Below are positions 32,046 through 50,281 of a DNA stretch of 64,000 bases, one piece after another. Position 1 is the first letter of the stretch; every line of letters begins with the position of its first letter. The DNA is taken from the NCBI GenBank assembly GCA_963840035.1, contig CAWIXE010000002.1:992099-1056098 (forward strand), read 5' to 3'. Both the position numbers and the translations under genes were made by a program. A model generated the notes under the pieces. The model had not been told where the DNA came from and ran no database searches. It worked only from the letters and a program-made list of their open reading frames with translations. This DNA comes from a candidate division FCPU426 bacterium (GTDB lineage Bacteria > Oederibacteriota > PGYV01 > Palsa-1178).

Positions 32046-32083
32046 AAAAAAAAACGCCGGCGGACAGCGCGGGAGCGCTGTCC
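32046..32083 (-). terminator. Rho-independent terminator immediately after 32084..32602 gene
   Basis: Minus strand reads 'ggacagcgctcccgcgctgtcc' followed by 'gccggcg' and U9. Confidence 0.65.
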
Positions 32084-32602
32084 CTACTCTGCGTACACCC
32101 ATTCAAAATCTCTTATTTTACTATTCCAATAAGCAATCGCGCTGTCAGCGTGAAACCGTTTAAACATGATTACCGGCGTTTTAAAAGTCCGGCCCTGCCA
32201 TGTCCCGGTGAAACTTTCCAGGCTGAGGTTATCCGGTAAGGATTTATACTTTCCCAGGAAATATTTCCTGTAATTGGAGCCTTCGCTGATCAAAGCGATA
32301 GCCTGAGCGGAAAAATTCACAACAACCCCGTTTTCCACCACATCCGACCTGACAATAAAGGCATAATCCTTTATGCCGTCAGAGTTAAAATCCGTGTTTA
32401 CATATCCCGGGCTTTTTAGTGTTATCTTGTGTTTCTTTAAAAAGGTTAAAAAATCATCGCTTAAATCCTTTACAGTCATTGTCCTTGCGTCAGGGCCGAA
32501 TGACATGAGCACGCTTTCAAAATTAAGGCCTTCAATTGGCCAGATCTGTGAAAAACAGAAAACAGGAAGTAATATTAAAACAAGTACAAAGATTTTTTTC
32601 AT
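32084..32602 (-). CDS. secreted hypothetical protein
   Basis: 172 aa, signal peptide MKKIFVLVLILLPVFCFSQ; no recognised motif. Confidence 0.5.
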   Translation of the reverse strand: MKKIFVLVLILLPVFCFSQIWPIEGLNFESVLMSFGPDARTMTVKDLSDDFLTFLKKHKITLKSPGYVNTDFNSDGIKDYAFIVRSDVVENGVVVNFSAQAIALISEGSNYRKYFLGKYKSLPDNLSLESFTGTWQGRTFKTPVIMFKRFHADSAIAYWNSKIRDFEWVYAE

Positions 32603-32624
32603 ACCCGCCCCTTTTAAGTCCCAC

Positions 32625-32652
32625 GTAGAGATGGGGTTAACCTCATCTCTAC
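32625..32652. repeat. GTAGAGA...TCTCTAC hairpin (12-bp stem, 'ttaa' loop)
   Basis: 'gtagagatggggttaacctcatctctac'; same terminal heptamers as the 64-bp repeat family. Confidence 0.6.
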
Positions 32653-32658
32653 GAAGGC

Positions 32659-33705
32659 TTATTTTCCCTGCGACATTTTCAACACCGCGCCTGTTGCCGC
32701 GTCTATTTCAATTCCCGGAACACTGCCGGCCCATCCTTCGACAGGCTTGCCGTCTATTTTCCACACATTATCTTTGAGCAATACCGCATATGGTTTAAAT
32801 GAATCTAATGTTGCTTTATCAAATCCGGCTTTTATCCAGGCCTTTTCCGCGATCTCAACAGCCTGCACTTTTGTAATTGCAGCTTTTATACTTACCCCTG
32901 CTGTTTTTGTAGCGCCCCACGAATCAAAAGCCGCTTGTGACTCAAAACCGGGAGCCGCCTGTTCAGTTGAAACCCCTTTATAAAAATTCAAAGCTGAATC
33001 CTCAGTTTTGTCATATTCATAATTAGCCTTTAATTCGACACTTTCCGCTTGCGGTTCCATTAACCCTAGCGATTTTTTTGCCTTATATTCAATATTGACG
33101 CCTGCCGGTTCCGCGGGTGCCGCGGGCTGCGCCTGTGCTTTTGGCGCTGACGCCGGCATAGCCCTTTTAGCGCCGCTGACCGCCGCGCCTGTATCCTTTT
33201 TTGCCTTCGCAATATCAAATACCGCTTCTGCCTTGCCTGACCCTTTTGAAAGGCCTATTTCTTCATTTAATTCAGCCAGCTTATTATCCATTGCTTTTTC
33301 CTTCACCTGCGTCTCAGCCTCAAATTTTGCCGCGTCTTTTACGCCTGCCGCTGATTTATACTCGGGGGTATTTGTAATCTGCCTTATGAAAAAAGCTATC
33401 AGTATTACCCCAAACCCGGTTGCAAAGGCCCTGAAATACGGGTTAAAGACAAAACTTGCCTTCTTTTTGTCCGCCGCATTGAGCTTTTGGTCAAGCTTCG
33501 CGTAAAAGTTTTGCGGCAGTTCCAGCTCTTTTGCCTTTGTATTTTTAAGCTCATTGACGGCCTTTCGCGTAAGTTCAAGTTCCAACGGGCAGTCTTTGCA
33601 TGTTTTTAAATGCGCTTCGAAATCAGACAACGCTTTGCCCGTCAGTTTCTTATCTATATACTCTGATATGCTGTTGTGGAATTCTTTATGATTCATCTTC
33701 ATCAC
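32659..33705 (-). CDS. anti-sigma factor, zf-HC2 zinc finger, single TM, periplasmic C-terminal domain
   Basis: 'HLKTCKDCPLELELTRKA' zinc-finger; TM 'FATGFGVILIAFFIRQI'; overlaps sigma gene stop. Confidence 0.7.
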   Translation of the reverse strand: MMKMNHKEFHNSISEYIDKKLTGKALSDFEAHLKTCKDCPLELELTRKAVNELKNTKAKELELPQNFYAKLDQKLNAADKKKASFVFNPYFRAFATGFGVILIAFFIRQITNTPEYKSAAGVKDAAKFEAETQVKEKAMDNKLAELNEEIGLSKGSGKAEAVFDIAKAKKDTGAAVSGAKRAMPASAPKAQAQPAAPAEPAGVNIEYKAKKSLGLMEPQAESVELKANYEYDKTEDSALNFYKGVSTEQAAPGFESQAAFDSWGATKTAGVSIKAAITKVQAVEIAEKAWIKAGFDKATLDSFKPYAVLLKDNVWKIDGKPVEGWAGSVPGIEIDAATGAVLKMSQGK

Positions 33706-34291
33706 CTATTATCGGCGTCAGCTTGATTTTAAGCGCTTCCCTTGCCCTTGCTATCCTTGACTTCACAGTTCCGAGCGCCACTTTTGTTATTTCCGATATT
33801 TCCTCGTAACTTAACTCCTCTATCTCCCGCAGCACAAGCATTTCCCTTGCCTGCTCCGGGAGTTCGTCCACGGCCTTTCGTACTATCTCTTTTCTGTGGA
33901 ATTTCTCAAACTCCTCGTCTGCGCCCGGCTTTTTATCCGGCAGTTCAAGCTTTATCGAGCCTTCTTCGCCTTCTATGACCTCATCGAGCGAATCATGCTT
34001 AAAAAAGAACCTGCGGCTTTCATATCTCACCCTGTTCTTCCAGGCGTTTATGGCTATCCTGTATACCCAGTTCCCGAACGGACAGTCATGCCCGAACCTG
34101 TTTATGGAGTTATAAGCGTTCACAAAAGCGTCCTGGGCAATATCCTCAGCCGCCTCTTTTGAATTAGAGAGCCGGTAACAAAGATTATATACCTTAGCAG
34201 CGCATGACCTAACCAGCGCGTCAAAAGCATTCCTGTCGCCCTTTTTAGCTTTTAAAACAAGCTCTTTTTCTTCTTTAGTTATCTCAGCCAC
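33686..34291 (-). CDS. ECF-type RNA polymerase sigma factor
   Basis: sigma-70 region 2 and region 4 ('LSYEEISEITKVALGTVKSRIARAR'). Confidence 0.85.
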   Translation of the reverse strand: MAEITKEEKELVLKAKKGDRNAFDALVRSCAAKVYNLCYRLSNSKEAAEDIAQDAFVNAYNSINRFGHDCPFGNWVYRIAINAWKNRVRYESRRFFFKHDSLDEVIEGEEGSIKLELPDKKPGADEEFEKFHRKEIVRKAVDELPEQAREMLVLREIEELSYEEISEITKVALGTVKSRIARAREALKIKLTPIIGDEDES

Positions 34292-34363
34292 TTAAACAGA
34301 CACCATTCCTTTATTTTTGTTCCAGGTGTTTAAAAACGCCAATCGACAATAGTCAATCATCAA

Positions 34364-35269
34364 TTATTTGACAACATCGGTCTTACCTATGAGCATATTA
34401 CCCAGAATCCTCAGATAGTCTTTTATCGTTATATAAACCGCGTTATCAGGCATAGGAACCTTGTGCGGAAACGGCCTTGAATATACGTTAACCAGCGTAT
34501 GGTGAAGCACGTGTTCCCTTGTGTCACCATGGGTAAAGAACAGGAATATTTTTTCCATAAACCCCTTGTCGCTTAAATTCCTGGTTTTAATGTTCCTGTT
34601 GTTATAATCCCCCTCAACTATCAGGTTGCCGTGCTCTATCATCTGCGAATGGTGCAGGAAGAAAGAATTGATCCAGATGGAAACCAGGTATGAAACAGCC
34701 ACAGCCCCGGCGCTGACGCCGAATACGAAATGCGCGGCTGTGCCAAGCCCTCCCAAAAACAGGGCTATCATCAGCAGTGTCAGCAGCGATGATGATCTCC
34801 TGTATTTAGCTTTATACTTAGGATGAGCGGGCAGAACAGCCGTTCCCATAAGCGAAATAAACGCTATGCCCAGGAAAATTTCGGCAATGTTATAAATGAT
34901 CTTAACTGCCCTGCTCTTTATCTCGCCGAGCGGGTGGAACTCAGTGTCATCCCATGTATTTACTTGGGAGTGATGAAATCCGTGAAGGATCTTATATATC
35001 TGGGGGTCTGTCAGAAGCATCCAGGAAAGGACATAATACAATTTTTCATTGTCAATATTTGTCACATATTTATGCCAGGTCTCATGCATAAGGTATCCAA
35101 GCCAGGTAAAAAGATATAGCCCGGGGAATATCATATAAGCAACAGACCACCATCCCGCTGCGGCAAAAACATAAGGAAGCGTAAAAAGATAAGCCGGCCA
35201 CGCAAACATGATGAAATAGAACTTCCAGGCCTGAGATTTAATTTCCTGTTCAGATATGTATTCAGCCAT
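34364..35269 (-). CDS. membrane fatty-acid desaturase family protein
   Basis: Histidine boxes 'HETWH', 'HGFHH', 'HHSQMIEH', 'HVLHH'. Confidence 0.75.
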   Translation of the reverse strand: MAEYISEQEIKSQAWKFYFIMFAWPAYLFTLPYVFAAAGWWSVAYMIFPGLYLFTWLGYLMHETWHKYVTNIDNEKLYYVLSWMLLTDPQIYKILHGFHHSQVNTWDDTEFHPLGEIKSRAVKIIYNIAEIFLGIAFISLMGTAVLPAHPKYKAKYRRSSSLLTLLMIALFLGGLGTAAHFVFGVSAGAVAVSYLVSIWINSFFLHHSQMIEHGNLIVEGDYNNRNIKTRNLSDKGFMEKIFLFFTHGDTREHVLHHTLVNVYSRPFPHKVPMPDNAVYITIKDYLRILGNMLIGKTDVVK

Positions 35270-35395
35270 ATAACCCTCCTATATGAGTAGATAACGACAT
35301 AATTATATATAGTAAAAGGTTTTTTTGCAATGTTTTTGAAGCAGGTTATTGACATCAGGACATGGCTTGCCACCCACTACTCACCACCCACTACC

Positions 35396-37470
35396 CTACC
35401 TCACACACACCAGCTTCTCAAACCCCTGCGCCTTTTCCCCTGTCTCTATCTGCGCTGTGACCGAGTATATAAAAGTCCCTGAAGCTATGTGTCTTTTTGC
35501 CCTGTTTTTTCCGTCCCAGTGGAAGTTATTATGGCCGGCTTTCGCGTTTATGCCGCATTCTTCTATGACTATCTCGCCTGATACGGTAAACACCCTCACG
35601 CACACCTCAGCGTCCCTTGAAAGCCAGTAAACTATGTTTGTGTCCTCGGCAAAAGGGTCGTTATAATTGCCTTTTAGTATAAGCTGTAACCGCGGAGTTA
35701 CCGGGGTAACAGTTGCAGACGCCTGCGGTGTCGAAGTTACTGTGCGGGTCGGTGTTGCAGTAATTGTCTTTGTAAATGTCAATGTTGGTGTAATTGTCCT
35801 TGTTATTGTTTTTGTCGGGGTAAATGTCATGGTCTGAGTTTTTGTAATCGTATCTGAAACAGTCATTGTCGGCGTTATGCTGAAAGTTGTTGTCATGGTC
35901 TGCGACGGTGTCAGTGTTTGCGTGACAGAATTAGTCAGGGTGACTGTCCGGGTCGGCAGAAGCGTTTCTGTGTGTGTTACGGTATAACTCGGGGTCTCAG
36001 TCAAGGTATCCCCGGGCGTCTGCGTCTGTGTATAAGTCGGGGTCCTGGTAAAAGTCGGCGAATTCGGACTTGTTGCGGTCCTTGTCGCTGTTCTTGTTCC
36101 GGTCGGAGTGCGCGTTGGCGTTACTGTAGCGGTAGAAGTGGATACGAAATCCGTCATCCCTGACCCGCCCGGATAGCCATATCCATCCTGGTCGTCAAAA
36201 CCGTACACGTTGACGCCTATTGGAAGCGGTGAAATAATGTTGTGGCTCCCGACCCCGACGCTTACGCGCGTGGCCGAAAAACCGCTGGATGCAATAGAAA
36301 TAAAACTACCCGCAGGTATAACCGAACCGTCAACTGATAATAGCCCGGCTGCGGCGTCAGGGGCAGTGATATTTAAATAATTCGCAGAGAAACCGGATTG
36401 TGGCGTCCCAACAGTGTAATTATCCAGATACTGCTCGACAGGTTCTATAATCATCATGAACGGGTCGCCGGTTGTGGAATCAAACATGGTGCTGTTTGAA
36501 TACTGCATAACAAGCACCCGGTTGTTCGAAGTTATCATTCCCGCCCCGCTGATTAACGCCTCAAAAAACGCGCCTTTGACCATAGGCGACGGGTTTAAAA
36601 GAGCCCCGTCAAGGTACAGGTATGTGCCGTTTTGTGACGCCATAATTCTGTAGGTATCGGTCCCTGACCTTCCCGCAAGCGGAACGATAATAAATTGTTT
36701 CCCCCAGCTCGATGTCGGGGCAGCTGTTCCACAAGGTAATTGCAGTAGTTGGATGACACCGGGATATCCGCGCAGATATGGCCCCCGAAAACAGCAATAC
36801 GCCTGTCAGAATCCACGGTTGTTCCGGTTAAATCCTCACTGCCGGGATTGTCATCTCGCAGTAAATAGACCTGCCCTTTATTCAGAATTACGTCATACGG
36901 GACATTCTGGATCCTGCCGCCTATCGTGCAGTTAAGCCTGATTGTCACCGTGGTGTTATCTTCGACAGCCACTACGGCAAATTCACTTCCTACCGGGTTA
37001 TTTACGCCGCCGTTATTGAATGAAAGAATTATATGGTTGGTGCCAAGCGCTTCCACAGGAAGGCCCAAAAACGCGTCTGTAATGACAGGGCTGTGCGAAT
37101 AACCGTATACGGTTACCGGATCAGCCGAGGTTACATGTATACCCCTCACCGAAACAACGTCGCTGTCAAAAACGTCGCTGTTCCATGGCAGGTCCACATA
37201 GGTTATAGCGCCGGCAGTCACATTTACATTTTTGTTAAACGTCAGGACCGGCGATAAGGATATGGTCATGTTCACGGTTGCTGTCGTATTGGTCTGTGAA
37301 GTGATGAGTATTTGCTTTGCAGGCGATATTCCCGAACTGTAAGGCGAATAATATGACCCCGGGATGCAAATCCAGAAATCAGTCCCTTCGCTGGTGGGTG
37401 AAGAAAATGCATAAAACGGCATTATGAAAAGATATGCCATTACTGTCAAAACCTTAATTTTTAATTTCAT
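35396..37470 (-). pseudogene. frameshifted gene for secreted IgGFc-binding-like domain protein with Thr-rich linker and T9SS-type C-terminal domain
   Basis: ORFs 36595..37470 and 35396..36643 are one gene: the '...NYCNYLVEQLP' frame continues as 'PTSSWGKQFIIVPLAGRSGTDTYRIMASQNG...' in the next frame; shift at G4 run 36717..36720. Confidence 0.6.
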
Positions 37471-37558
37471 TCCCGCTCCAGTAAGGATGGACTTATTTCT
37501 CTATAAATATATCGGAAATATGGGAGAAACCTTGAATTGAATTAATGTTTTAAACACC

Positions 37559-37725
37559 GGTAGCCCGCAACCTTCGAGATGCTATTGCTAGCCTTGGCGG
37601 GCAAACATTAAATCAGCGCAATTCATCTAATCTTGCCGTGTTAATCACGGCTGGTTGCGAAAGGCAGGTTCTCGCCCGCCTGACACCGGCAGCCAGCCTT
37701 GCGCAACCTGAAGGTTGCGGCTACC
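37559..37725. other. GC-rich ~170-bp intergenic element with nested inverted repeats (candidate structured RNA or MITE)
   Basis: Closing stem 'ggtagcccgcaaccttc'/'gaaggttgcggctacc'; internal 'ggcgggc'/'gcccgcc' and three 'gcaacc'/'ggttgc' pairs. Confidence 0.3.
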
Positions 37726-37729
37726 AGAA

Positions 37730-38800
37730 CTATAAAATACCTTTCTTTAATTCTTCCATATAAACTTTCTTAGCCGTTTTTCCCGACTTATATATGGCCT
37801 CGACCATCCACTGCGTCTCAAGCCCGGCATCCTCGTCAACGTCCACAGGCGTGTTATTTATAATCGCTTCGTAAAAACGCCTTATCTCCACCGAATGGCA
37901 ATAGCCCCAGTATTCTTTCCATCCGCTTCCATAATCAATGAACTCGCTCTTTTTAGGTTTGGCTGAAAGATGGCTTCCAAAAAGTTTCTTCTCATTAAAA
38001 TAAACGTCTGCCTGGTCCTTCACTATTTTTACTTTGCCTTTTTCGCAGTGTATTTCCATGACCACGTCATCGTCGTATGAATAATGGCATATGGTATAGA
38101 AGTTGATGTACGAACCGTTCTTAAACATCACAACGCCGGCCGCGTCGTCTTCTACCTGTACTTTTACATGCATCCTGTTGGCGATGGACGCGTCTACCCA
38201 GTCTATTTCAGAGTTAAATACGTAACGTAGAATGTCCAATGAATGGATTGCCTGATCTATAATAACCCCGCCGCCCTCTTTATCCCATGTCCCCTTCCAG
38301 TCGCTTTTAAGATAATACTCGTCAGGCTTGCACCATGAAAGTATCAGCTTTGCCGAGAGTATCTTTCCCAGTTTTCCTGACTCAATTGTCTTTTTAGCCA
38401 GCTGCGTGGAGGGGTTATACCTGTTCTGGAACGAAATGGCAAACTTTACCTTCTTTTCTTTTATCTTTTTATAAAGCGCCACAGCGTCAGCTGCGCTTGT
38501 GGTCATGGGTTTTTCCTGGTAAATGTGGACGCCGCGTTCAGCGGCGTATTCAGTCATTTCTTTGTGCAGGTAGTGCGGGGTACACACATGTACCACGTCT
38601 GGTTTTACCTGGTCAATCATGCTTTTATAATTGGCGAATGTTTCACAGCCGTATTTATTCCCCGCGGCCAGAAGCCTGTCCTGTTTTATGTCACAAACAG
38701 CCTTTAATTCGGCAATATCCTTACATGCCTGACGCACAGATTCCGCGTGCATCGGAAAAATAGTTCCGCATCCTATGATCGCAACCTTTAACTTAGCCAT
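37730..38800 (-). CDS. Gfo/Idh/MocA family oxidoreductase
   Basis: Start set at MAKLKVAIIGCG (RBS GGAGGG); Rossmann motif and Gfo/Idh/MocA C-terminal domain. Confidence 0.8.
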   Translation of the reverse strand: MAKLKVAIIGCGTIFPMHAESVRQACKDIAELKAVCDIKQDRLLAAGNKYGCETFANYKSMIDQVKPDVVHVCTPHYLHKEMTEYAAERGVHIYQEKPMTTSAADAVALYKKIKEKKVKFAISFQNRYNPSTQLAKKTIESGKLGKILSAKLILSWCKPDEYYLKSDWKGTWDKEGGGVIIDQAIHSLDILRYVFNSEIDWVDASIANRMHVKVQVEDDAAGVVMFKNGSYINFYTICHYSYDDDVVMEIHCEKGKVKIVKDQADVYFNEKKLFGSHLSAKPKKSEFIDYGSGWKEYWGYCHSVEIRRFYEAIINNTPVDVDEDAGLETQWMVEAIYKSGKTAKKVYMEELKKGIL

Positions 38801-38812
38801 ACCTAACCCTCC

Positions 38813-38857
38813 ATTTGTCTTATTTGTCTTATTTGTCTTATTTGTCCTATTTGTCCT
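38813..38857. repeat. 9-bp tandem repeat x5 immediately upstream of oxidoreductase RBS
   Basis: 'atttgtctt' x3 then 'atttgtcct' x2. Confidence 0.85.
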
Positions 38858-38865
38858 ATTAGCCA

Positions 38866-39432
38866 TTACTCAAAAACGTGCGTCAGCTGCACTCCGGCAA
38901 AAATACCGCTCAAATCAATATACCCCGGATCAAAAGGCGCGTAGTTAAAGCCGGCTTTGTAATACCTGTATCCGACTTCCAACCCGGCATAAAACTGCCC
39001 CTTTACCTGATAAAGAAACGCTTCTTTAACCGCAAATTCAAAACCTCCGCCTTTTTCATCATTTACATCTATTCTATACCTTGCAATTCCATATCCGGCC
39101 GACACTGTTGACCAGAGCATATATTTTTTTTCATCAAATAACACCATATAGCCAAGGTCCACCGAAGGTATCGGCGAGATGATTCTCATGTTATGGCCTG
39201 ACAAATCCAAATCCTCAATGCCCAAATGATTATAAGCAAACCCCGCGCTGAAACCATTTTCCCAAACCCAGCCCAACCCTCCGTTTGGCACGGCAACCCT
39301 TCCGGATTTTATCCCGAAATCTTTATTTTCCCCGTACATCTCCTGATCATATCCGAGAGTAAGGTATAATCCGGCATTTATAATCGCCGACATAGCAGCA
39401 ACAAAAAAAAGTATCAGCACTGTTCTTTTCAT
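38866..39432 (-). CDS. small outer-membrane beta-barrel-type protein
   Basis: Signal peptide MKRTVLILFFVAAMSAIINA; Gly/Tyr-rich alternating strands; C-terminal 'LTHVFE'. Confidence 0.5.
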   Translation of the reverse strand: MKRTVLILFFVAAMSAIINAGLYLTLGYDQEMYGENKDFGIKSGRVAVPNGGLGWVWENGFSAGFAYNHLGIEDLDLSGHNMRIISPIPSVDLGYMVLFDEKKYMLWSTVSAGYGIARYRIDVNDEKGGGFEFAVKEAFLYQVKGQFYAGLEVGYRYYKAGFNYAPFDPGYIDLSGIFAGVQLTHVFE

Positions 39433-39440
39433 GTTCCCTC

Positions 39441-40196
39441 CTAAATTTGTATGCTTAAATATTCATTCCCGCCTTTTACAAACTCAAAATCAACCCTCTT
39501 TATCTCAAACTTTACCTTTGTAAATTTCATATCATTCATTATCCTGTCCACAAATTCGCACCTTTTCCACCTTAAGTTCACTATCGGGAATATCCTTATT
39601 TCCTCCCTCGTGACCCTGATGAGTTCCGATATGGCGTCGCAGTGGAAGTTATAGTCCAGGTGCTCATCATACAGGAAGAGAAAATGCGAAACAAGCGTCA
39701 GGTCAAACTCCTTATCAGTCAGAACCGTGTCAGGCAAAGACGTGTTTATGTACCTGTAATTGCCCTTTGCCTTATAATCAACAATGAACCTTTTATAAGC
39801 CTCTTCGCGGTATTTTTTAAGGGTTTCAATATCCTTATAAAAGCCCCAGTTATAGTTATCCTTTACAGCCGGCAGTTTCGATATCATCTCAGCCAGGTCT
39901 TGCCTGCATTTTGGCTCAAGTTCTTCAGGCGAATACTTATAGAGCCTGTCCGCTGATTTTGCGTCAAACCCCAGCTCATTTGCCTCCGCGGTAAAAGAAG
40001 AAACCCCTCCGCCCGCATCCAGTATCTGGGTATTCTTAAGCTCAGTAAACCGCAGGTCAAACATCCGGGAATACTCATCAAGCGTCCTGCCGATTGCGAT
40101 AATATCATTCAGTTCAAACTTTTCGATACTCAATTTGATACACCCCGTAAGTGTTTGCGGGTAGAGGGTTGAGTCCGAAGTAACTCCGAACCCCAC
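39441..40196 (-). CDS. SAM-dependent methyltransferase-like protein
   Basis: 'ILDAGGGVSSF' motif-I-like; true start may be internal because the annotated 5' end overlaps an intergenic hairpin. Confidence 0.45.
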   Translation of the reverse strand: MGFGVTSDSTLYPQTLTGCIKLSIEKFELNDIIAIGRTLDEYSRMFDLRFTELKNTQILDAGGGVSSFTAEANELGFDAKSADRLYKYSPEELEPKCRQDLAEMISKLPAVKDNYNWGFYKDIETLKKYREEAYKRFIVDYKAKGNYRYINTSLPDTVLTDKEFDLTLVSHFLFLYDEHLDYNFHCDAISELIRVTREEIRIFPIVNLRWKRCEFVDRIMNDMKFTKVKFEIKRVDFEFVKGGNEYLSIQI

Positions 40197-40212
40197 CCTC
40201 CACCCTCAAAAC

Positions 40213-40896
40213 CTAATTCAATCCTTCTTTATACCTGTCCTCAACTTTAACATTCATTATATCCGTGACTTTTGTCAATACCGCGTCAAATTCCGCCTCT
40301 TTTCCCTCTTCGCAGATAAGGTAAGCCCTGAGCGCCACAGAATCGCTTACCATGGCGTTTTTTACAGGCAGGTAATAGCCCGCCTCTACAGGCCCGGGAT
40401 TATAACCGGTGGTAAAAAACTCCACTACCAGGTTTGTTTCAAGTCCGCCTTCGAGCCTTAACCCAACTGTAAGGGCCAGGTTCATGGTTGTATAGTCCAT
40501 GTAATACTTATACACTTTATCTATGTTATAAACAATTTTTTCAAAGATATACTTGATCTCAGCCGGGGTATATTTGTGGAAAAACTCGTCATCTACCTCG
40601 ATAATCTCCTCATCAACTTCATCCATGGCCTGCGATACCGGGTCCGCAGGCGCGTGTTCGTGCTCAGGACCGTGCTCATGGCCGCATTCCTCGCATTCAT
40701 GAGTATCATTTTCCATGGATAAAAACTTCTTGATATCTGCCATCTCCGGGTCATTTACAGATTTTAAAGCGTCCCTTAAGTCCTCAAGCTCCAGGCATGT
40801 TATGCTGCCCTGCTCCACATGGCCGTTTAAGGTAAACTGATACAGAAAATCAGGTATCATTGAGGCAAGATCCAGGTTAAAATTAATTTTTTGCAT
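40213..40896 (-). CDS. hypothetical acidic protein with His/Cys/Glu-rich motif
   Basis: Start set at MQKINFNLD; 'HECEECGHEHGPEHEHAP' metal-binding-like stretch. Confidence 0.5.
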   Translation of the reverse strand: MQKINFNLDLASMIPDFLYQFTLNGHVEQGSITCLELEDLRDALKSVNDPEMADIKKFLSMENDTHECEECGHEHGPEHEHAPADPVSQAMDEVDEEIIEVDDEFFHKYTPAEIKYIFEKIVYNIDKVYKYYMDYTTMNLALTVGLRLEGGLETNLVVEFFTTGYNPGPVEAGYYLPVKNAMVSDSVALRAYLICEEGKEAEFDAVLTKVTDIMNVKVEDRYKEGLN

Positions 40897-42011
40897 TATG
40901 CTTATTCTCCGCTTCCATTTTGAGGTAGGCCTCGACATATACATCCAGGTCGCCGTCTAAAACTTTATCCACATCGCTGCGCTCCAAGTCGGTGCGCAGG
41001 TCTTTTATCATTTTATAAGGGTGCAAAACATAAGAGCGTATCTGGCTGCCCCACGCAATCTCGCGCTTATCACCGGCTATCGACGCAATGTTCTCCTTAT
41101 GCTGTTCTTCTTTTATGGCTACCAGTTTGGATTTTAGGACTTTCATGGCTATTGCCCTGTTTTTCATCTGGGAACGGTCTACCTGACAGGCTACAATCAC
41201 TCCGGTGGGTATATGGGTTATCCTGATGGCTGATTCGGTCTTGTTCACGTGCTGTCCGCCTGCGCCTGATGACCTGTATGTATCGACTTTCAGGTCTTCC
41301 GGCCTGATATCCACTTCCACGTCTTCTTCTATCTCGGGAATGACCTCCAGCGAGGCAAATGAGGTATGCCTGCGCTTGTTGGAATCAAATGGCGATATCC
41401 TGACAAGCCTGTGAACGCCCTTTTCCGGCCGGAAACAACCATAGGCGTAGTCGCCTATGACTTCAAAGGTCACATTTTTAATGCCAGCCTCGTCGCCGGG
41501 CATGGAATCAGTGACATTTACCTCAAAACCTTTCTTTTCACACCACATTACATACATCCGCAGCAGCATCTGCGCCCAGTCACAGGACTCTGTCCCGCCC
41601 GCGCCGGCATGCAGGGTTACTATGGCGTTGCTTCTGTCATATTTTCCGGAAAACATCTGGTTGAATTCTTCGTTATCCACAGCCTTCTTTAATTCCGCAA
41701 ATTTCTTCTGAAGTTCAGCCTCAAGCGACGCGTCTTTCTCGCTTTCAAGGAGTTCAAGCGTCACTTCAACCTCTTCAATTAAAGTGTTTATTTTATTTGT
41801 TTTTGTTATATCGTTATTGATGGCTTTTAACTTTAACTGTACTTCAGCCGCAGCCTTATTGTTGCTCCAGAAATCAGGCTCGGCAGTCATTGTCTCCAGC
41901 TTTATTTTTTCAACTTTCTTGTCTTTAACGTCAAAGATACACCTCTATCTTCGATGCTCTCTGCTTAATATCAGACAATGCTGACCTTATTTCCTTTATT
42001 TCCAGCGCCAT
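40883..42011 (-). CDS. prfB: peptide chain release factor 2, with programmed +1 ribosomal frameshift
   Basis: Frame 0 'MALEIKEIRSALSDIKQRASKIEVYL' ends at CTT TGA C (41936..41930) preceded by SD-like GAGGTG; +1 frame continues DVKDKK...; 'SPF' and 'GGQ' motifs present. Confidence 0.9.
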
Positions 42012-42070
42012 CACTACCTCCGGGTTAAATAGTTCATTTTGTTCAAGACAAATGATAATATAGCACAGCC

Positions 42071-42099
42071 ATTTTTGCAAGAAAAATCTGTAAAAAGGC
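42071..42099 (-). promoter_or_regulatory. candidate sigma70-like promoter for prfB (TTGCAA-N17-TATCAT)
   Basis: Read on minus strand in the divergent prfB/pheT intergenic region. Confidence 0.3.
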
Positions 42100-42277
42100 C
42101 TATTTTCACCTTTTTACCATATCCTTTATATAGATATCTATTATGTTTATTCTTTATTTTAAATCTTTATAAACCGCTTTTGCTCCTTATTTATATGGCA
42201 TTTTATTCATTTTAGGCCATTTTCAGTCATAACGTTTCTAAGGTATTCCTCGTTTTATTATACCATTACATTTAAAA

Positions 42278-42306
42278 TTGACATTTATTCTCTATTATGT
42301 AATAAT
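42278..42306 (+). promoter_or_regulatory. candidate sigma70-like promoter for pheT (TTGACA-N17-AATAAT)
   Basis: -35 TTGACA at 42278..42283; RBS AGGAG just before ATG at 42334. Confidence 0.4.
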
Positions 42307-42333
42307 CAGAAAAACCTTAATTTACAGGAGAAT

Positions 42334-44745
42334 ATGATGCTTGTCAGTTACAATTGGCTCAAAAATTACATTAATTTAACCATCTCCCCTGCGGAACTGG
42401 CTGATAAACTTAATATAGCCGGGCTTCCTGTAGAAGAGATCACAGAGAAGAAGGCACCCTTTACCAATGTAGTCATAGGTAAAGTACTTGCGGTTGAAAA
42501 ACACCCTCAGGCAGACAATCTTAACCTCTGTGACGTATCAGACGGTACAGAAACCTTAAAGATAGTATGCGGCGCGGCAAATGTCGCCGCCGGACAAACC
42601 ATAGCCCTTGCCAGGATTGGGGCTGTCCTTCCCGGAGATTTCAAGATTAAGAAAGCAAAGATCAGGGGCGTGGAATCCAACGGCATGATTTGTTCCGAGT
42701 CTGAGCTTGGCCTAGCAAAAGAATCATCAGGCATCATGGTCCTGGATGAGAAAAAGTATACTCCCGGACAGCCCTTTGAGCCGGTAAAACCCGACACAAT
42801 TTTCAGCCTTGAGATAACCCCGAACAGGCCTGACCTGCTGTGCGTAACCGGCGTCGCCCGTTTTATTTCGTCGCGCCTTGGCATTGATTTTAAGTACCCG
42901 TCATGCGAAGTATCCCCCGGCAACATTGACCAGTCACTCGACGCCGGCGCTGTGGTTAAAATCGAGAACCTTGACGCGGTACGCTGCCCGAGGTACGCGG
43001 CAAGGGTCATAAAGGGCGTTAAGATATCCGATTCACCTGAGTGGCTAAAGGAAGCCTTAACCGCCGTGGGTGTGCGGCCTATTAATAACGTAGTCGACAT
43101 CACGAATTATATACTCATGGAGATAAACCATCCCCTTCACGCTTTTGACTTGAGCAAGCTCAAGGGAAAAACCATAAAGATAAGGACCGCTGTACACGGC
43201 GAAAAAATTCTCGCCCTTGACACTAAGGAATACCATCCTCACGCTGAGGACCTTGTTATAGCCGATGACAAAGACCCTGTGGCCTTAGCAGGTATCATGG
43301 GCGGCGAACATTACTCCGTAGATTCTTCCACTTCCACGGTCGTCCTCGAGTCAGCCTGTTTCCAGCCTAAGACAGTAAGGAAGACATCACGCCGCCTGGG
43401 GGTATCTTCTGATTCCTCCTACAGGTTTGAGCGCGGTATTAACATAGACAACGTCACGAATGCCTTAAACAGGGCCGTGGAGCTCATCATACAGGTCGCA
43501 GGCGGAAAAGCCTCAAAGAACATCACGGACATTTACCCCTCGCCTGCCGTGCCGAAAGTCATTTCCCTGCGCTTTGCAAGGGTCAATCAAATACTCGACA
43601 TGGCGCTTTCAGCGCAGGAAATTAAGGCCCTCATAGAAATGCTTTACTTCCCCATAAACAACGTGTCCGCGGATTCAATGGAAGTAACAATCCCGGGTTA
43701 CAGGGTCGATATTTCCGAGGAGATAGACCTTATCGAGGACATCGCCCAGATAATGGGTTATGACAAAATACCGGTAAACCTGCCCGCTTCCCTGATGGGC
43801 GTCAGCCGCGAGTCAGGCATCGCGCTGTTCAAAAAATCGCTATCCAACTCAATGATGTCATGCGGTTTTTCCGAAGTAATAAACTACAGTTTCGTCAACA
43901 ACAAGCTCTTAAAGCAGCTTAAAGCGGAAACCCCTCTTCCCGAAGGAGCGATAGCCCTTAAGAACCCTTTTAATGACGAAGAAACGCATATGAAAACCAC
44001 GCTTCTGCCGGACCTTATTAAAAACCTAATCACCAATTACAATAACGAAAATGAGAACATACACATATTTGAGGTCTCTAACTCATTTTTAAAGCACGGC
44101 AGCAGCTACCTCCAGCTGCCGAAGATCGGCGCTGTAACCTATGGCAGCGTCATTAACCAGGCTTTTAACCGCAAGGAATTTACGACTGATTTTTATTACC
44201 TGAAATCGGTCATCGGCTCCCTGTGTCATACTGCGTCGCCCGAAATAGAACCTGTTTATAAAACGGCCCCAGCCGGCAATGATTTTTATGAATATTTCGC
44301 GGAGATATCAATAAACGGCAGGATAATCGGCACGGCCGGCCAGATAAAACAGGACATACTTTATGACAACAAATTCAAATCAAAGGCATTTGCCTTTGAG
44401 ATAGATATTGAAGCCCTTTATTCTTTCATTTCAAAGAACACGTCTTACAGCCATATCGCGCGCTTCCCTTCGGTTAAAAGGGATATTTCAGTGGTTGTAA
44501 AAGACTCGGTGGCCCAGGCCAGCGTTGAGTCGCTTATTACGGCGGATTATAAGGCGCTCATAAAGTCGCTCACCCTTTTTGACTTGTATAAAGGAAGCCA
44601 GGTGCCGGAAGGCTCAAAATCTTTAAGCTACAACATTATCTTCCAGTCTGAAAAAAAGACTCTCTCTGAACAGGATATAAATAAAGCCATGGAACGCATT
44701 ATTGGAAGGTTAAAATCCGAACTTCAGGCTGAATTGAGGTCATAA
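42334..44745 (+). CDS. pheT: phenylalanine--tRNA ligase beta subunit
   Basis: 803 aa; N-terminal tRNA-binding domain 'GKVLAVEKHPQADNLNLCDVSDGTETLKIVCGAANV', B3/4 and B5 regions. Confidence 0.95.
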   Translation: MMLVSYNWLKNYINLTISPAELADKLNIAGLPVEEITEKKAPFTNVVIGKVLAVEKHPQADNLNLCDVSDGTETLKIVCGAANVAAGQTIALARIGAVLPGDFKIKKAKIRGVESNGMICSESELGLAKESSGIMVLDEKKYTPGQPFEPVKPDTIFSLEITPNRPDLLCVTGVARFISSRLGIDFKYPSCEVSPGNIDQSLDAGAVVKIENLDAVRCPRYAARVIKGVKISDSPEWLKEALTAVGVRPINNVVDITNYILMEINHPLHAFDLSKLKGKTIKIRTAVHGEKILALDTKEYHPHAEDLVIADDKDPVALAGIMGGEHYSVDSSTSTVVLESACFQPKTVRKTSRRLGVSSDSSYRFERGINIDNVTNALNRAVELIIQVAGGKASKNITDIYPSPAVPKVISLRFARVNQILDMALSAQEIKALIEMLYFPINNVSADSMEVTIPGYRVDISEEIDLIEDIAQIMGYDKIPVNLPASLMGVSRESGIALFKKSLSNSMMSCGFSEVINYSFVNNKLLKQLKAETPLPEGAIALKNPFNDEETHMKTTLLPDLIKNLITNYNNENENIHIFEVSNSFLKHGSSYLQLPKIGAVTYGSVINQAFNRKEFTTDFYYLKSVIGSLCHTASPEIEPVYKTAPAGNDFYEYFAEISINGRIIGTAGQIKQDILYDNKFKSKAFAFEIDIEALYSFISKNTSYSHIARFPSVKRDISVVVKDSVAQASVESLITADYKALIKSLTLFDLYKGSQVPEGSKSLSYNIIFQSEKKTLSEQDINKAMERIIGRLKSELQAELRS

Positions 44746-45018
44746 ATGCCGCTTATCGCCCTTGACATACTCGACAACAAGATAAAAGAGCTGCTTATCA
44801 TCATCAGCCACCTTAAGGATGAGAACACCGCCTTAAAGGCCAAAATAAACGAAAACAGGCCTGCATCCTCCTCTTCTGTCAATGTATCTCCGGAGCTTAT
44901 GTATGAACTTGAGAACATGAAAAAGACGGTCATAAAATATAAAAATGACAGGAACCAGCTTTATTCAAAACTTGCCGGCATCTTAAGGCAGGTTGATGAA
45001 ATAATAAACAGGGAGTAA
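44746..45018 (+). CDS. small coiled-coil protein (ZapB-like)
   Basis: 90 aa, heptad-rich; immediately upstream of zapA. Confidence 0.45.
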   Translation: MPLIALDILDNKIKELLIIISHLKDENTALKAKINENRPASSSSVNVSPELMYELENMKKTVIKYKNDRNQLYSKLAGILRQVDEIINRE

Positions 45019-45019
45019 C

Positions 45020-45457
45020 ATGGAAAAATCAGTCATAACAGTAAACATATTCGGGAATGAATACACGATCAAAGGCGTGGCGCGTCCCGACTATATTATC
45101 TCCCTTGCCAACTACCTCAATAATAAAATGACCGAAGTACAGGAAGCAACGGGCCTAAAGGACGCGAAGAAAATAGCTATTTTAGCAGCCATTAACATAT
45201 CAGACGAGTTGTTCGAAGCTAAACGCGCAATGAAAGAAGGGTTTGTCCCTAATGACCAGCTTGCGGCCATAAGGAATAAGGTAGAGGGATTAATCGCCAC
45301 CATAGACCGTGAACTTCCATCGGGAATTGATATATCATCTGAAGTTCCGGCTCAGGGCGCGGGAAATACAGCTTCCCAGGCGCCTGCCGCTGACGAAGCC
45401 ATTAAAGAAGACATCACACCCCCGGATAATCCGTCCCTACCGCCAAAAACCGAATAA
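45020..45457 (+). CDS. zapA: cell division protein ZapA
   Basis: 'ITVNIFGNEYTIKG...AKKIAILAAINISDELFEAK' ZapA signature. Confidence 0.8.
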   Translation: MEKSVITVNIFGNEYTIKGVARPDYIISLANYLNNKMTEVQEATGLKDAKKIAILAAINISDELFEAKRAMKEGFVPNDQLAAIRNKVEGLIATIDRELPSGIDISSEVPAQGAGNTASQAPAADEAIKEDITPPDNPSLPPKTE

Positions 45458-45468
45458 GCTCCCGGATT

Positions 45469-46659
45469 CTAATAAGTTCCGTTGCTGTCCGTTTTAACAA
45501 AATATATGTTATATGAATTTTCGCCTGAAGGATTCTTTACCCATCCTGTTACCGCAATTCCGAAGTCCTTAGAGAGCGCGATACCTCCGAGATAATCGTC
45601 CATTTTGGTCCCGAAATTCCGGCTCCACAAAGGCGTGCCTGAACTGTCAGTCTTTATAATATACAGGTCGCTGCTGCCCTGGGTAAAGGATTCGCTAGTG
45701 GAACCTATTACATAGCCGCCTTTACCGTCGCTAATCACAGACTCACCGAATTCATTCAGCATGTCGCCGTACGTCCTGGCCCATACACAATCCCCTTCGG
45801 CGTCGGTTTTAACCAAGTATATGTCATTATTTTCAGCGGTTGAAACATATGTAGTGCCGCATATCAAATAACCGCGGTCGTCAGTTTGTATTATCTTGGC
45901 AGCGCTGTCATCTAAATTTCCGCCATACGCTCTCGTCCACACCGTATTTCCGCTTAAATCAAATTTTACGATTGCGGCATCAGTTTTTTCTTTTACATTT
46001 TTTACGGCTTCGCCTGAGACAACATATCCCCCGTCAATGCCCGCAATTATGCATTTTGCCTTGAATGAATGAAAACCAGCATCCGTCACTTTCGTCCACA
46101 CGCTGTTTCCGTCCTGATCTATCTTTATCAGCATGCATGAATACCGATTTGATTTAAGGGGGTCATGCGCTGAACCCGCAATTATAAAACCTCCGTCAGA
46201 AGTTTCCATGATGGCAGACGCCTCTTCATTCTCCGCGGTACCGTATGTCCTCAGGAACTTTATATTCCCTTTTTTGTCCGTTCTGACAGCTAAAAAATCA
46301 GCAAGGCCGGCGCCGTATGATGTAGTTGCCCCGGCCATGACAAAATCACCGTTTGAAGCGATTACTACAGAATAGAACCGATCATCCCCAGCTCCGCCAA
46401 AATAATTGTCCCATTGCTTTTTTCCATGACTGTCAAGTTTAAGCAAGTATGCGTCCACATAACCGGCGCCAGCGGCAGTGGACATGCCGGCAATGACATA
46501 ACCGTTATCATCAGTTGCTTTTATATCCCGCGCGCTGTTATATTTTACGCCGGTAATAACAGCGGGTTTTATACGCGAAGGCGGCAATACTGACAGCACG
46601 GCGGCAAATATTCCGGATAAAATAATTACAATAAATATTATAACTGCCATTTTTTTCAT
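45469..46659 (-). CDS. membrane-anchored beta-propeller repeat protein (SBBP-like repeats)
   Basis: N-terminal anchor; six to seven repeats of the pattern 'YGG..D...S...T.DGGY...G.T.S.G.G..D..L.K.D..GN..W'. Confidence 0.5.
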   Translation of the reverse strand: MKKMAVIIFIVIILSGIFAAVLSVLPPSRIKPAVITGVKYNSARDIKATDDNGYVIAGMSTAAGAGYVDAYLLKLDSHGKKQWDNYFGGAGDDRFYSVVIASNGDFVMAGATTSYGAGLADFLAVRTDKKGNIKFLRTYGTAENEEASAIMETSDGGFIIAGSAHDPLKSNRYSCMLIKIDQDGNSVWTKVTDAGFHSFKAKCIIAGIDGGYVVSGEAVKNVKEKTDAAIVKFDLSGNTVWTRAYGGNLDDSAAKIIQTDDRGYLICGTTYVSTAENNDIYLVKTDAEGDCVWARTYGDMLNEFGESVISDGKGGYVIGSTSESFTQGSSDLYIIKTDSSGTPLWSRNFGTKMDDYLGGIALSKDFGIAVTGWVKNPSGENSYNIYFVKTDSNGTY

Positions 46660-46674
46660 ATTATTCTCCGATTG

Positions 46675-46974
46675 TTAAAGGATTTTACTGGCTTTATTAT
46701 TGGATTTATAGACAAACACGAGCACTTCCGCTATGAGTTTGTATAGTTCGGGCGGTATTTCCTGGCCTAAATCAAGCTTCGAAAGCACTTCAATAAGGTC
46801 CGGGTCTTCGTGCATCGGTATGTTATGTTTCCTGGCGAGCTCGATTATCTTATCCGCCATTACCCCTTTACCTTTGGCTACTATTTTAGGGGCCGAATCC
46901 GTATTTTTATCATAATGTATGGCAAGCGCCTGTTTCTTTTTCTGTGGAAGGTTTGGGCTCAGCTTTTCATCCAT
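46675..46974 (-). CDS. FlhB C-terminal-domain paralog (YlqH/FhlB family)
   Basis: 'ALAIHYDKNTDSAPKIVAKGKG...IPPELYKLIAEVLVFVYK' aligns with the FlhB C-terminal domain in this window ('IAVALRYKEGVDGAPTVVAKG...IPNELFQAVAEILAFVYQ') but lacks NPTH. Confidence 0.75.
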   Translation of the reverse strand: MDEKLSPNLPQKKKQALAIHYDKNTDSAPKIVAKGKGVMADKIIELARKHNIPMHEDPDLIEVLSKLDLGQEIPPELYKLIAEVLVFVYKSNNKASKIL

Positions 46975-46976
46975 TA

Positions 46977-49616
46977 TTATGCCTGAAGGTTGATCCTGCC
47001 GACATTTACATAACCTTCACCCGAGGAAGGCGAAGAACCGGCTTTTTCGCTGTCTATTAGTATCTGAAATGCCTTCATATTAAAATTAACAGTATTTAAG
47101 CCTTCCATGAAGTCGTTTTTGCCCCTCATAAGCGCCTGCTTTGCCTTTTCGCTTGCTATGTTTACCGTGCATTCGACGTCGTTCTTATGGATCGTCATGC
47201 TTATCTTCACGCTGCCCAGGTTGGATGTATTTAGCATGAAGACAATATTTACAGGCATTGATTTTTCAAAACTGTCTTTTACTCCGCCTTTCCTGAACCA
47301 CACCTGGACTTCACCGTTAAAGAGTTTGTTGCTTAAGAATACGGGAAGCTGCGCGTATATCATCTCAAATGCAGCGGGTTTCTGGTTTATAAACTGCAGC
47401 GCGTTCATGTTTGTGAGTATGTCCGTTGCAGCGTCCTTTATCTGGCGTATTGATTCCTTGTGGGCGGGGCTTAGCTTGTATGAATCCATATTTTCGGTGA
47501 CCGAGCCCAGCTTAATCAGCGCCGACTTAAGGTTGTCTTTCATGCCCGCAATGTCCGTTGCGAGCCTTGCGGCCGCCTGATTGTTATCCTTTACTATTGA
47601 CTCATTTTTCAGGACAGCGTCCTTTAGTTTGTTCTCAATATTTAGCCCGCTTGATTCCATAAAACTCTTCAACTGCTGTTCTATAACCTGCTGTTTTAAG
47701 TTAGTATCCTCCGGGTTTATGACTACCTGGCGGATGGCGGTTTTTACGGCTTCAGCAGCGTTATACAATGCCGCGATATAAGGGGCATCCTCTTTTGGCA
47801 GGGCGTTTGACTGTTTAAGGCCGTCAAAACGGTTGATGGCATTGGATAGTTTCTCCAGTCCCTGGTTTAATTTCATGTCATCCTTAAAATATTTTCCCAT
47901 GGTATCTATGAATTTGTCATTGCCTGTCGATATATCCCTGGATTTAAGAAACGTCAGCGACTCCACCGTCGATTCGACATCAAATTCCGCGTTGGCAGCC
48001 GTGATCTTTAAAGCCTGGCTTTCCGCAACCCGGGGTTTAATTACGCTGAGCAGCTCGCTTTTCGCCATAAAATCTTTCATAACTGACTGAAATTTTAAAT
48101 AATCTTTGGGCGCTATCATTGTTTCTTCAGGATTATTCGTTATGCCTGTTTTTTGGATCAACTGGGTTATGTTGTCCGCCGCCTTATTTATCTCAGACCT
48201 GAAATTGTTTATCTGGCCCTGGGTTATAACCGATTTATCAACTGATTTATCAAGCCCTTCGCTTAACATCGTTATCCCGACATTTAACTTTGTTATGGCG
48301 GCGGCTATATCCTTAACGTTCTGGGGGAGGTTTGTTTCTCCGGGAGTTAACACATTCCTTTTTAATTCGGCGAATGAATCCCTGATTCCGGTTATTATCT
48401 GTTTCGCCTGCTGGTTTACCGCGTCAAAAATATCCGCTTTCTGATTTATGCCGTCAGGAGCCTTAAGGGCCAAAGCCTGGCTCCCAAGAAGTTTATTTAC
48501 AAAAACGTCCCTTAAGGCATTCGCGGCAGTATTTTCAGAAGCCTGCCCCGTTGACGGGGATGTTATAAACGCCTCCATGTCCGCCTTTAAGCTGCCAAAG
48601 GTTATTTCCAGGTCATTGTTAGGAGACATTGTCATCCTGATGTTTGCTGAATTTATAACGGCAGGCTGCCCGGTGGATACGGCCGCGATCATAACTTTAG
48701 CGTCAGCTGACGATATAAGCCCGTTCTTGACGGAATCATAAACAGCGTTTTCCATAATCTGCTTTGACGCGTTTTTAATTGTTACTGTTACACCGCCCTG
48801 ATTTGCCGCCACATTTATATCCCTGACCTGGCTGGAAACGCCGGCCAGCGTATTTATGATGTTTGTAAATTTTATCGCGGTGCCGGTCTTATCTCCGGAT
48901 GGCTGCGCAAGTGAGACGGCCTGCGCGGGCTGTTTTAGAGATTCCGGCGTATTTGCCGCAGCGGTTTCAAGCGCCTGAAAAGGCTGCGATATCTGAGCGG
49001 CTTCAATGGCGCTTTTGGCTGCATTTGCGGCTTCGGCGCTGAGTTTTATCATCCCTGAAACAAATACTTCTTTGGCCACGGGAAGGGTCTCAATATTCAA
49101 CGCCCTGATATCTATACCTTTTGCGTCCATGTAGCGTATCAGGCTCTGGTTAATATCCGCCATGTTCTGGGCTGTCACAGGCAGGTGATAGTCCATAAGT
49201 TTCTGGGCGATAAAAATATTTTGTTCATTGACAGGCACTTTGATATTTGTCAGCGTCTGCATAATCTGGCTTAATGAAACCTGCTGTCCCTGGAGTTGCG
49301 GGATATCCGCGCCTTTTCCTATATCAGCGGCAGGATTGGGTATTAGTTTCATCATGATCTGATTATTTATCTGCGATACTTCCACATTAATTATGTCGCC
49401 CTTCTGGACGCCCATACCCTGCGGAAGCTGAGATATTATGTTATACCCTTTAAAGTTTATAATGGCTTTATTTTCTCCGGGAATAATGTCAACCACCCTG
49501 CCTTTTAGGGTATCTCCGGGGTTTAATGTGGCGATAAAATCCCTTATGTCCTTATCAGCCGCGTTCAAAAGCTGGAATAAATTTTGATTTACGCTTTGTA
49601 CCGACATTTTTTCCAC
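46977..49616 (-). CDS. large FliK-like (hook-length control domain) protein
   Basis: 879 aa, Gln/Asn/Ala-rich; C-terminal region resembling the FliK Flg_hook domain; flagellar-locus context. Confidence 0.4.
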   Translation of the reverse strand: MEKMSVQSVNQNLFQLLNAADKDIRDFIATLNPGDTLKGRVVDIIPGENKAIINFKGYNIISQLPQGMGVQKGDIINVEVSQINNQIMMKLIPNPAADIGKGADIPQLQGQQVSLSQIMQTLTNIKVPVNEQNIFIAQKLMDYHLPVTAQNMADINQSLIRYMDAKGIDIRALNIETLPVAKEVFVSGMIKLSAEAANAAKSAIEAAQISQPFQALETAAANTPESLKQPAQAVSLAQPSGDKTGTAIKFTNIINTLAGVSSQVRDINVAANQGGVTVTIKNASKQIMENAVYDSVKNGLISSADAKVMIAAVSTGQPAVINSANIRMTMSPNNDLEITFGSLKADMEAFITSPSTGQASENTAANALRDVFVNKLLGSQALALKAPDGINQKADIFDAVNQQAKQIITGIRDSFAELKRNVLTPGETNLPQNVKDIAAAITKLNVGITMLSEGLDKSVDKSVITQGQINNFRSEINKAADNITQLIQKTGITNNPEETMIAPKDYLKFQSVMKDFMAKSELLSVIKPRVAESQALKITAANAEFDVESTVESLTFLKSRDISTGNDKFIDTMGKYFKDDMKLNQGLEKLSNAINRFDGLKQSNALPKEDAPYIAALYNAAEAVKTAIRQVVINPEDTNLKQQVIEQQLKSFMESSGLNIENKLKDAVLKNESIVKDNNQAAARLATDIAGMKDNLKSALIKLGSVTENMDSYKLSPAHKESIRQIKDAATDILTNMNALQFINQKPAAFEMIYAQLPVFLSNKLFNGEVQVWFRKGGVKDSFEKSMPVNIVFMLNTSNLGSVKISMTIHKNDVECTVNIASEKAKQALMRGKNDFMEGLNTVNFNMKAFQILIDSEKAGSSPSSGEGYVNVGRINLQA

Positions 49617-49638
49617 CTTTGTTCTTTATTTATATAAT

Positions 49639-49665
49639 ATATCGGAAATCCGCTGAAAATCTTTA
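49639..49665 (-). promoter_or_regulatory. sigma-28 (FliA)-type promoter TAAA-N15-TCCGATAT
   Basis: On minus strand: TAAA (49665..49662), 15-nt spacer, TCCGATAT (49646..49639); about 25 nt upstream of the FliK-like gene start. Confidence 0.45.
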
Positions 49666-49672
49666 GCGCAAA

Positions 49673-50278
49673 TTAACGCTTAATATTGCGTATTAACTGT
49701 ATTTCGCCCCTTGTAAGGCCGGTTACTTTGGCAATTTCATCCACGGATAGGCCGTTATTTAAAAGGGTATTTATATGCTGGTATTTATCCCTTCCTGCAG
49801 CCTTAAAATCCTTATCCATTACAGGCGCTTCAGCGTTATCTTCCAGGCCGTTAACAACAAGCCTGGACACGGCCGGCGTGTCCTTAACATCCTGTGTGTT
49901 ATCGCCTTCCAGGCTGTCTGATTTTTCGGCAGCGGGTATCTCGGATGGTGTATCATGTATGGCCTCTTTATATTCAGCCTGCCTTCTCAGCTGGTTTCTT
50001 TCCATGAGGTACTTCATCTCATTTATGCGCTCGGTAGCCGCTTTCATGGTCTGCTCAACAGATTTTTTCACTTCCTCCATCGCTATAATCCTTGTATTCG
50101 CGATCACGCTAAGCTCATCAATAAGCGATTTGAGATTTTGCTGGAATTCTATGAGGTCAATGCCTTCAAGTTCGGACATGGGGCCTGATTCGCGGGGTTT
50201 ATTAAGTTTGATAAGAAGAAAAACAACAACAGCTATGAGAATTAAATTTAGGACAACCAGTGTTATGAACATATCCAT
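49673..50278 (-). CDS. hypothetical membrane-anchored protein with C-terminal helix-turn-helix
   Basis: N-terminal TM 'FITLVVLNLILIAVVVFLLI'; C-terminal 'LSVDEIAKVTGLTRGEIQLI'. Confidence 0.45.
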   Translation of the reverse strand: MDMFITLVVLNLILIAVVVFLLIKLNKPRESGPMSELEGIDLIEFQQNLKSLIDELSVIANTRIIAMEEVKKSVEQTMKAATERINEMKYLMERNQLRRQAEYKEAIHDTPSEIPAAEKSDSLEGDNTQDVKDTPAVSRLVVNGLEDNAEAPVMDKDFKAAGRDKYQHINTLLNNGLSVDEIAKVTGLTRGEIQLIRNIKR

Positions 50279-50281
50279 CCT

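Follow-up and report, generated by a model that had tools for sequence, protein, structure and literature searches.

Two adjacent open reading frames (ORFs) on the minus strand of the 64,000-nucleotide stretch of DNA analyzed here (hereafter, the window) are the two halves of one gene, which is interrupted by a lesion of 1 nt in a run of C residues (Table 1). A split of this kind, caused by a 1-nt frameshift at a G4/C4 run, had been proposed in the original prediction, and it is borne out by the division of a Pfam domain between the fragments and its restoration upon repair, by the homologues of the protein, by a syntenic orthologue, and by an independently assembled contig (L003). The coordinates and peptide given there agree exactly with the ORF translations, as does the estimated length of ~690 aa with the 691 aa of the repaired product. 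Judging from these sequence comparisons, the split probably reflects an error of sequencing or assembly, with one base under-called in the deposited contig.

Table 1. Coordinates of the interrupted gene, its parts, and the sites at which two assemblies differ (window positions)
Feature	Position	Strand	Details
Interrupted gene	35396..37470	minus	Secreted IgGFc_binding-domain surface protein, 691 aa after addition of one base; repair equals P0122
Upstream fragment	36595..37470	minus	291 aa as called; signal peptide, N-terminal beta module, first 40% of PF17517
Downstream fragment	35396..36643	minus	415 aa as called; homologous frame reaches back to the C run
C4 run (G4 on plus strand), site of missing base	36717..36720	minus	C5 in independent assembly; CCT CCT (Pro-Pro) in orthologue
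PF17517 IgGFc_binding domain	36200..37077	minus	Repaired residues 132-424; broken at residue 251/252
Probable signal peptide	37402..37470	minus	MKLKIKVLTVMAYLFIMPFYAFS/SP; by inspection: K-rich n-region, hydrophobic core, AFS
Thr/Pro-rich low-complexity linker	35672..36151	minus	~Residues 441-600 (~160 residues); from translation
C-terminal beta-sandwich, FlgD-Ig/T9SS-CTD-like	35399..35689	minus	~Residues 595-691 (~95 residues); from profile and fold matches
G_GGA_AAC heptamer (incidental)	36697..36703	minus	In frame of upstream ORF; TGG GGG AAA (W-G-K) in intact allele
A6 (window) vs A5 (Logan L005)	~59163	minus	flhB ORF 58088..59224
ACATGA (window) vs ACA-GA (Logan L005)	~62766	minus	Gene 62764..63786
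SNP C/T (window vs L005)	63142	minus	Gene 62764..63786

The minus strand at the junction reads AAT TAC CTT GTG GAA CAG CTG CCC CGA CAT CGA GCT GGG GGA AAC, which is translated as NYLVEQLP-RHRAGGNN in the frame of the upstream ORF and as APTSSWGKQFIIVPLAGRSGTDTYRIMASQ in the other frame. The two ORFs overlap by 49 nt in different frames, and the stretch over which both frames are open extends only from 36806 to 36595. Joining the frames across the junction requires a shift of -1 (or +2), and by homology the missing base belongs to the C run; insertion of one C here generates the 691-aa product, which contains YLVEQLPPTSSWGKQFIIVPLAGRSGTDTYRI. The called proteins differ from this product at their inner ends. 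The 291-aa ORF terminates in a 40-residue out-of-frame tail (RHRAGGNNLL...GLF and stop) without homology, and the start ATG of the 415-aa ORF is an internal methionine codon (YRIMASQ) that lacks the Shine-Dalgarno sequence found at most neighboring genes.

The lesion cuts the IgGFc_binding domain at profile position ~120-127. Residues 132-259 of the upstream ORF match positions 1-127 of the PF17517 profile (E 3e-34, 119 bits), and the other frame, read from 36724, matches positions 119-297 (E 1.5e-33, 117 bits). Because the fragments match contiguous profile coordinates, they constitute a single split domain of 297 positions, far beyond what would be expected by chance. The repaired product matches the profile in one stretch over positions 1-297 of 297, with a score of 246.3 bits (E 5e-73) against a Pfam gathering threshold of 25.6 bits, and the IgGFc-binding domain proposed earlier for this protein is thus recovered over its full profile.

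A homologue search with the N-terminal 441 residues of the repaired product returned 535 relatives. The best 120 of these are single chains of ~510-770 aa that cover 78-100% of the query, the lone exception being P0095, which is the downstream fragment itself. The break falls within the most conserved motif of the family, C-D-H-x-V-E-Q-L-P-P-T-x-x-W-G (CDH-VEQLPPT--WG), and this motif is contiguous in the window gene only once one base is restored, consistent with the earlier proposal that the conserved stretch calls for five rather than four G residues on the plus strand. In an alignment of 119 homologues, C243 and F260 are present in every sequence, E248 and G257 in 118, P252 in 116, and W256 in 115. 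Residues 244-262 are gap-free in 119/119. Homologues that end or begin at the junction had been named as the sign of two real genes; none of the 119 starts or ends within 30 columns of it.

In its repaired form, the protein resembles bacterial PF17517 surface proteins with C-terminal T9SS-type, Big_1, or FlgD-Ig domains. It shares with them the full-length PF17517 match, a length within the ~600-730 aa of hundreds of homologues, and the combination of an N-terminal signal peptide with a C-terminal beta-sandwich. It differs in having a long Thr/Pro-rich linker where most PF17517 homologues carry Big_1 (PF02369) domains.

The closest relative, P0001, is a 713-aa protein with 66% identity that is encoded by one intact gene on contig L001. 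It aligns with the repaired product without gaps over the junction, where its gene reads CTG CCT CCT TCG as compared to CTG CCC CG ACA in the window. The two loci share a gene order consisting of a MocA-type oxidoreductase, the surface protein, a fatty-acid desaturase, an ECF-type sigma factor, and a zf-HC2 anti-sigma factor. Relative to the orthologue, pN is 0.17 and 0.21 in the two halves of the window gene, and pS is saturated. With synonymous sites saturated against the only close orthologue, omega was limited to the C-terminal 100 codons, in which it is ~0.08. These sequence measures give no sign of decay on either side of the lesion. Scans of the surface-protein locus for promoters and terminators gave no signal above background.

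Two other features of this neighborhood are of note. The genes for the ECF-type sigma factor (201 aa) and the zf-HC2 anti-sigma factor (348 aa) overlap and lie directly downstream of the desaturase (32659..34291, minus strand), and the C-terminus of the anti-sigma factor matches the Imm-NTF2-2 and PepSY domains. At 38813..38860, a perfect-looking 9-nt tandem repeat (ATTTGTCTT, 5.3 copies, plus strand) encodes MANRTNRTNKTNKTNKTNGG, an odd extension at the N-terminus of the MocA-type oxidoreductase (ORF 37730..38866). The oxidoreductase is 378 aa in the window and its orthologue in L001 is 355 aa; because the orthologue is shorter, translation may in fact begin at the internal MAKLKVAIIGCG, which would place the repeat in the leader.

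Inspection of the N-terminus of the repaired protein indicates a probable signal peptide, and in an AlphaFold model of the orthologue P0001, built from a 48-sequence alignment, the corresponding region forms a helix (residues 2-18) followed by a low-confidence hinge. Residues 25-443 of the model are all-beta, with pLDDT mostly >90, and the junction falls after strand 244-250 and before strand 257-262 of this one module. Foldseek matches to the N-terminal module were discarded as meaningless (TM ~0.1, rmsd >25 Å), and no PDB match was obtained by sequence. The model is disordered over residues 444-612. For the orthologue C-terminus, Foldseek returned the FlgD hook cap (7eha/7bhq) with a probability of 1.0 over ~100 columns, as well as the Fn-like domain of ScpA and the C-terminus of PorU (6za2), likewise over ~100 columns.

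At the level of profiles, the C-terminal domain of the repaired product scores 24.1 bits against FlgD_ig (PF13860; gathering cut-off 27), the CHU_C score is 15.2 bits against a cut-off of 27, and PF18962 and TIGR04183 are not matched at E up to 0.1. The PorU and PorZ models are matched locally at their C-termini, though below threshold. No T9SS genes (PorU/PorV/SprA etc.) were seen within the 64-kb window. Of the T9SS C-terminal domain anticipated in the original prediction, what stands is a FlgD/CTD-like beta-sandwich; we describe it as CTD-like, as it falls below the thresholds of the T9SS sorting-domain families.

An independent assembly of the same population provides an intact version of the gene. 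A cluster at 90% identity holds both fragments, which are called as separate proteins in one NCBI/ENA contig (1,707,679 nt), together with P0122, a 691-aa protein that stems from the Logan assembly of run ERR11594406 and has exactly the sequence of our conceptual repair. P0122 is encoded on Logan contig L003, whose alignment with window positions 47470..32059 spans 15,413 nt and contains no mismatch and a single gap of 1 nt; the sole difference is CCCCC in L003 vs CCCC in the window at the C run, and the gene itself carries zero substitutions. Adding contigs L004-L008 of the same run, six contigs in all, widened the comparison to 56,224 bases out of the 64,000 in the window. Over these bases, all differences amount to three 1-nt indels and one SNP. 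The three indels are all in coding sequence and two of them are in homopolymers, corresponding to 2 discrepancies among ~1,150 runs of at least 4 bases in the compared 56 kb. Because there is a single SNP in 56 kb, we take the two assemblies to derive from the same clonal population.

At the other two indels, it is L005 that is one base shorter than the window. The A6 run of the window gives a canonical FlhB N-terminus (MADPGKTENATPKRKDEARKKGQVARS / MADPGKTENATPKRKDEARKKGQVARSME), whereas A5 in Logan frameshifts flhB, which is called as 351 aa vs 378 aa and is thus 27 codons short; this deletion looks like a consensus error in the Logan assembly. At ~62766, Logan lacks the T of a stop codon, and the 340-aa protein encoded there becomes longer by 14 residues; the gene for this protein adjoins, upstream, a gene encoding a FliMN_C domain. 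The Logan method discards k-mers seen once and keeps those seen at least twice. With each retained k-mer occurring at least twice, C5 is real in ERR11594406; this does not imply that C4 is absent from the population.

We also looked for the two alleles elsewhere. A pattern covering both C4 and C5 found no match in JGI metagenome contigs or GTDB representative genomes, and a related-locus search of genome contigs yielded no further carrier of either allele. The source is an uncultivated bacterium near Candidatus Goldbacteria; its PheT is 65-70% identical to proteins from metagenome-assembled genomes (MAGs) and 52-53% identical to those of Candidatus Goldiibacteriota/Goldbacteria MAGs.

Of the three causes offered in the original prediction (sequencing error, pseudogene, and recoding), these data favor the first, the C5 run leaving the gene intact in L003. 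The gene would encode a secreted cell-surface protein composed of a signal peptide, an all-beta module containing PF17517, a Thr/Pro-rich stalk, and a FlgD/CTD-like sandwich. Its C5 homopolymer was probably under-called by one base, either in the sequencing itself or when the consensus was built, so that the deposited contig has CCC CG for the Pro-Pro codons CCC CCG, and gene callers would then have output two fragments from the under-called run. The C run comes immediately after CAGCTG, and a basecalling error linked to methylation might, speculatively, be involved. The intact run length in an independent assembly, with most of the other differences between the assemblies being single-base indels, is what a homopolymer error of assembly or consensus should leave behind. 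Because the differences are mainly private single-base deletions, each of which breaks a conserved gene in one assembly, consensus error fits the pattern and strain divergence does not. Long-read consensus and MAG assemblies are well known to contain homopolymer indels that break up gene calls (Sereika et al. 2022, PMC9262707). As in those nanopore-type assemblies, loss of one homopolymer base here leaves a conserved gene in two neighboring frames, another assembly of the population has the gene whole, and indels outnumber SNPs; unlike in those assemblies, the run is short (C5 to C4) and the discrepancy rate is low (3 indels/56 kb). Two points weigh against an artefact: with current chemistries, 4-5 bases is a short tract for a homopolymer error to persist in the consensus, and the rest of the window is very clean.

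That otherwise accurate assembly, together with the existence of both alleles on record in otherwise identical backgrounds, lends some weight to C4 being real, either as a very recent slipped-strand deletion that left a pseudogene in the sequenced lineage or as a segregating C4/C5 polymorphism, possibly acting as a crude ON/OFF switch. Surface proteins such as this one are, moreover, the class most often lost or phase-variable (contingency loci). We nonetheless regard a real C4 as unlikely. Homopolymeric contingency tracts are typically at least 7 nt, and the tract here is only 4-5 nt in a window whose longest G/C runs are 5-6 nt. The run is not kept at the DNA level, the orthologue having CCT CCT; the site lies mid-domain in the most conserved motif and not close to the 5' end; and no further substitution is found anywhere in the gene. 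The differences between the assemblies are also dominated by indels and are reciprocal, with flhB broken in Logan, a pattern better explained by technical error than by variation among strains. The gene thus resembles the phase-variable contingency loci of Neisseria, Haemophilus, and Campylobacter in encoding a surface protein, in varying by one nucleotide (+/-1 nt) in a C/G homopolymer, and in having both lengths recorded, albeit in different assemblies; it departs from them in its far shorter tract, its mid-gene position in a conserved motif, and an orthologue in which there is no tract. The more specific scenario of a genuine C4 coexisting with C5 in a natural population of a Goldbacteria-like bacterium, as a low-rate ON/OFF switch or as a gene caught at the moment of pseudogenization, appears still less probable.

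Recoding could in principle produce the full-length protein from the C4 template through a programmed -1 shift in the overlap. A scan of the overlap for slippery heptamers turned up one canonical X_XXY_YYZ example, G_GGA_AAC, in the frame of the upstream ORF, 14 nt downstream of the C run, and a slip at this site would yield a 691-aa product. Across 30 ordinary genes of the window, however, such heptamers are found at 0.76% of codons, which predicts ~0.5 in the 70-codon overlap; in the shifted product, RHRAGGN would replace PTSSWGK, with loss of the near-invariant P252 and W256; and a 141-nt segment that surrounds the junction and extends downstream folds no better than shuffled sequences (z = 0.03). 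The C run is itself not slippery, since a slip on CUG CCC CGA would lead to GCC. The homologues and the orthologue are all read without a shift, as is the C5 allele in its identical background. We rejected G_GGA_AAC as a shift site because it occurs at chance frequency, would cost the protein invariant residues, and lies in another frame in the intact allele, and we consider recoding highly improbable.

A mechanism of the prfB type is a +1 shift, and the junction needs -1/+2; a Shine-Dalgarno-like element with CUU UGA C, or an equivalent hungry or stop codon, is absent from the junction. The window does contain a textbook programmed +1 frameshift in prfB itself (release factor 2; 42011..40883, minus strand). 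Its ORF0 of 26 codons, MALEIKEIRSALSDIKQRASKIEVYL, ends at an in-frame TGA, with the Shine-Dalgarno-like GAGGTG at 41945..41940 and CTT TGA C at 41936..41930 (both minus strand), and the +1 frame continues with DVKDKKVEKIKLETMTAEPDFW into the PCRF/RF-1 ORF (40883..41890), which is called as only 335 aa. What the split gene has in common with programmed frameshifting, whether of the prfB type (+1, CUU UGA C) or of the dnaX/IS type (-1, A_AAA_AAG with Shine-Dalgarno sequence and hairpin), is a pair of overlapping frames that together encode one protein; unlike those systems, it has no conserved shift site or stimulator, and its relatives are unshifted.

Finally, the deposited record calls the fragments as separate proteins, as expected if a 291-aa secreted protein and a 415-aa protein were genuine products of two genes. 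We give this reading almost no credence and rejected it on the basis of homologue termini, the missing Shine-Dalgarno sequence, and the split fold. The cut lies within a single Pfam domain, between two strands of one confidently modeled fold; 0/119 homologues end or begin at the junction; the downstream ORF would start without a signal peptide as well as without a ribosome-binding sequence; and the upstream ORF would end in the non-homologous tail described above.

With an under-called base as the preferred explanation, the importance of this locus is mainly one of data quality. At least one gene call in the deposited contig is frameshifted and needs merging or a flag, and the 291- and 415-aa proteins in public collections are most likely artefactual halves of the 691-aa protein. 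Were C4 real, a surface protein would have lost its function in one recent event, a matter of local interest only. The Logan contigs of ERR11594406 carry single-base deletions of their own (in flhB and, apparently, in the stop codon of the gene at 62764..63786), and for this reason neither assembly is to be taken as truth without the reads.

The flhB gene belongs to a flagellar export and regulation cluster that occupies 46977..63786 of the window (minus strand). In addition to the FliMN_C-domain gene, fliO/P/Q/R, and flhB, this cluster includes a 699-aa ORF (55986..58085), an flhF-like SRP54 GTPase, a MinD/ParA-like ATPase, a PilZ protein, a sigma-28-like factor, a FapA-domain protein, and an 876-aa Flg_hook-domain protein followed by a 99-aa Bac_export_2 fragment-like gene.
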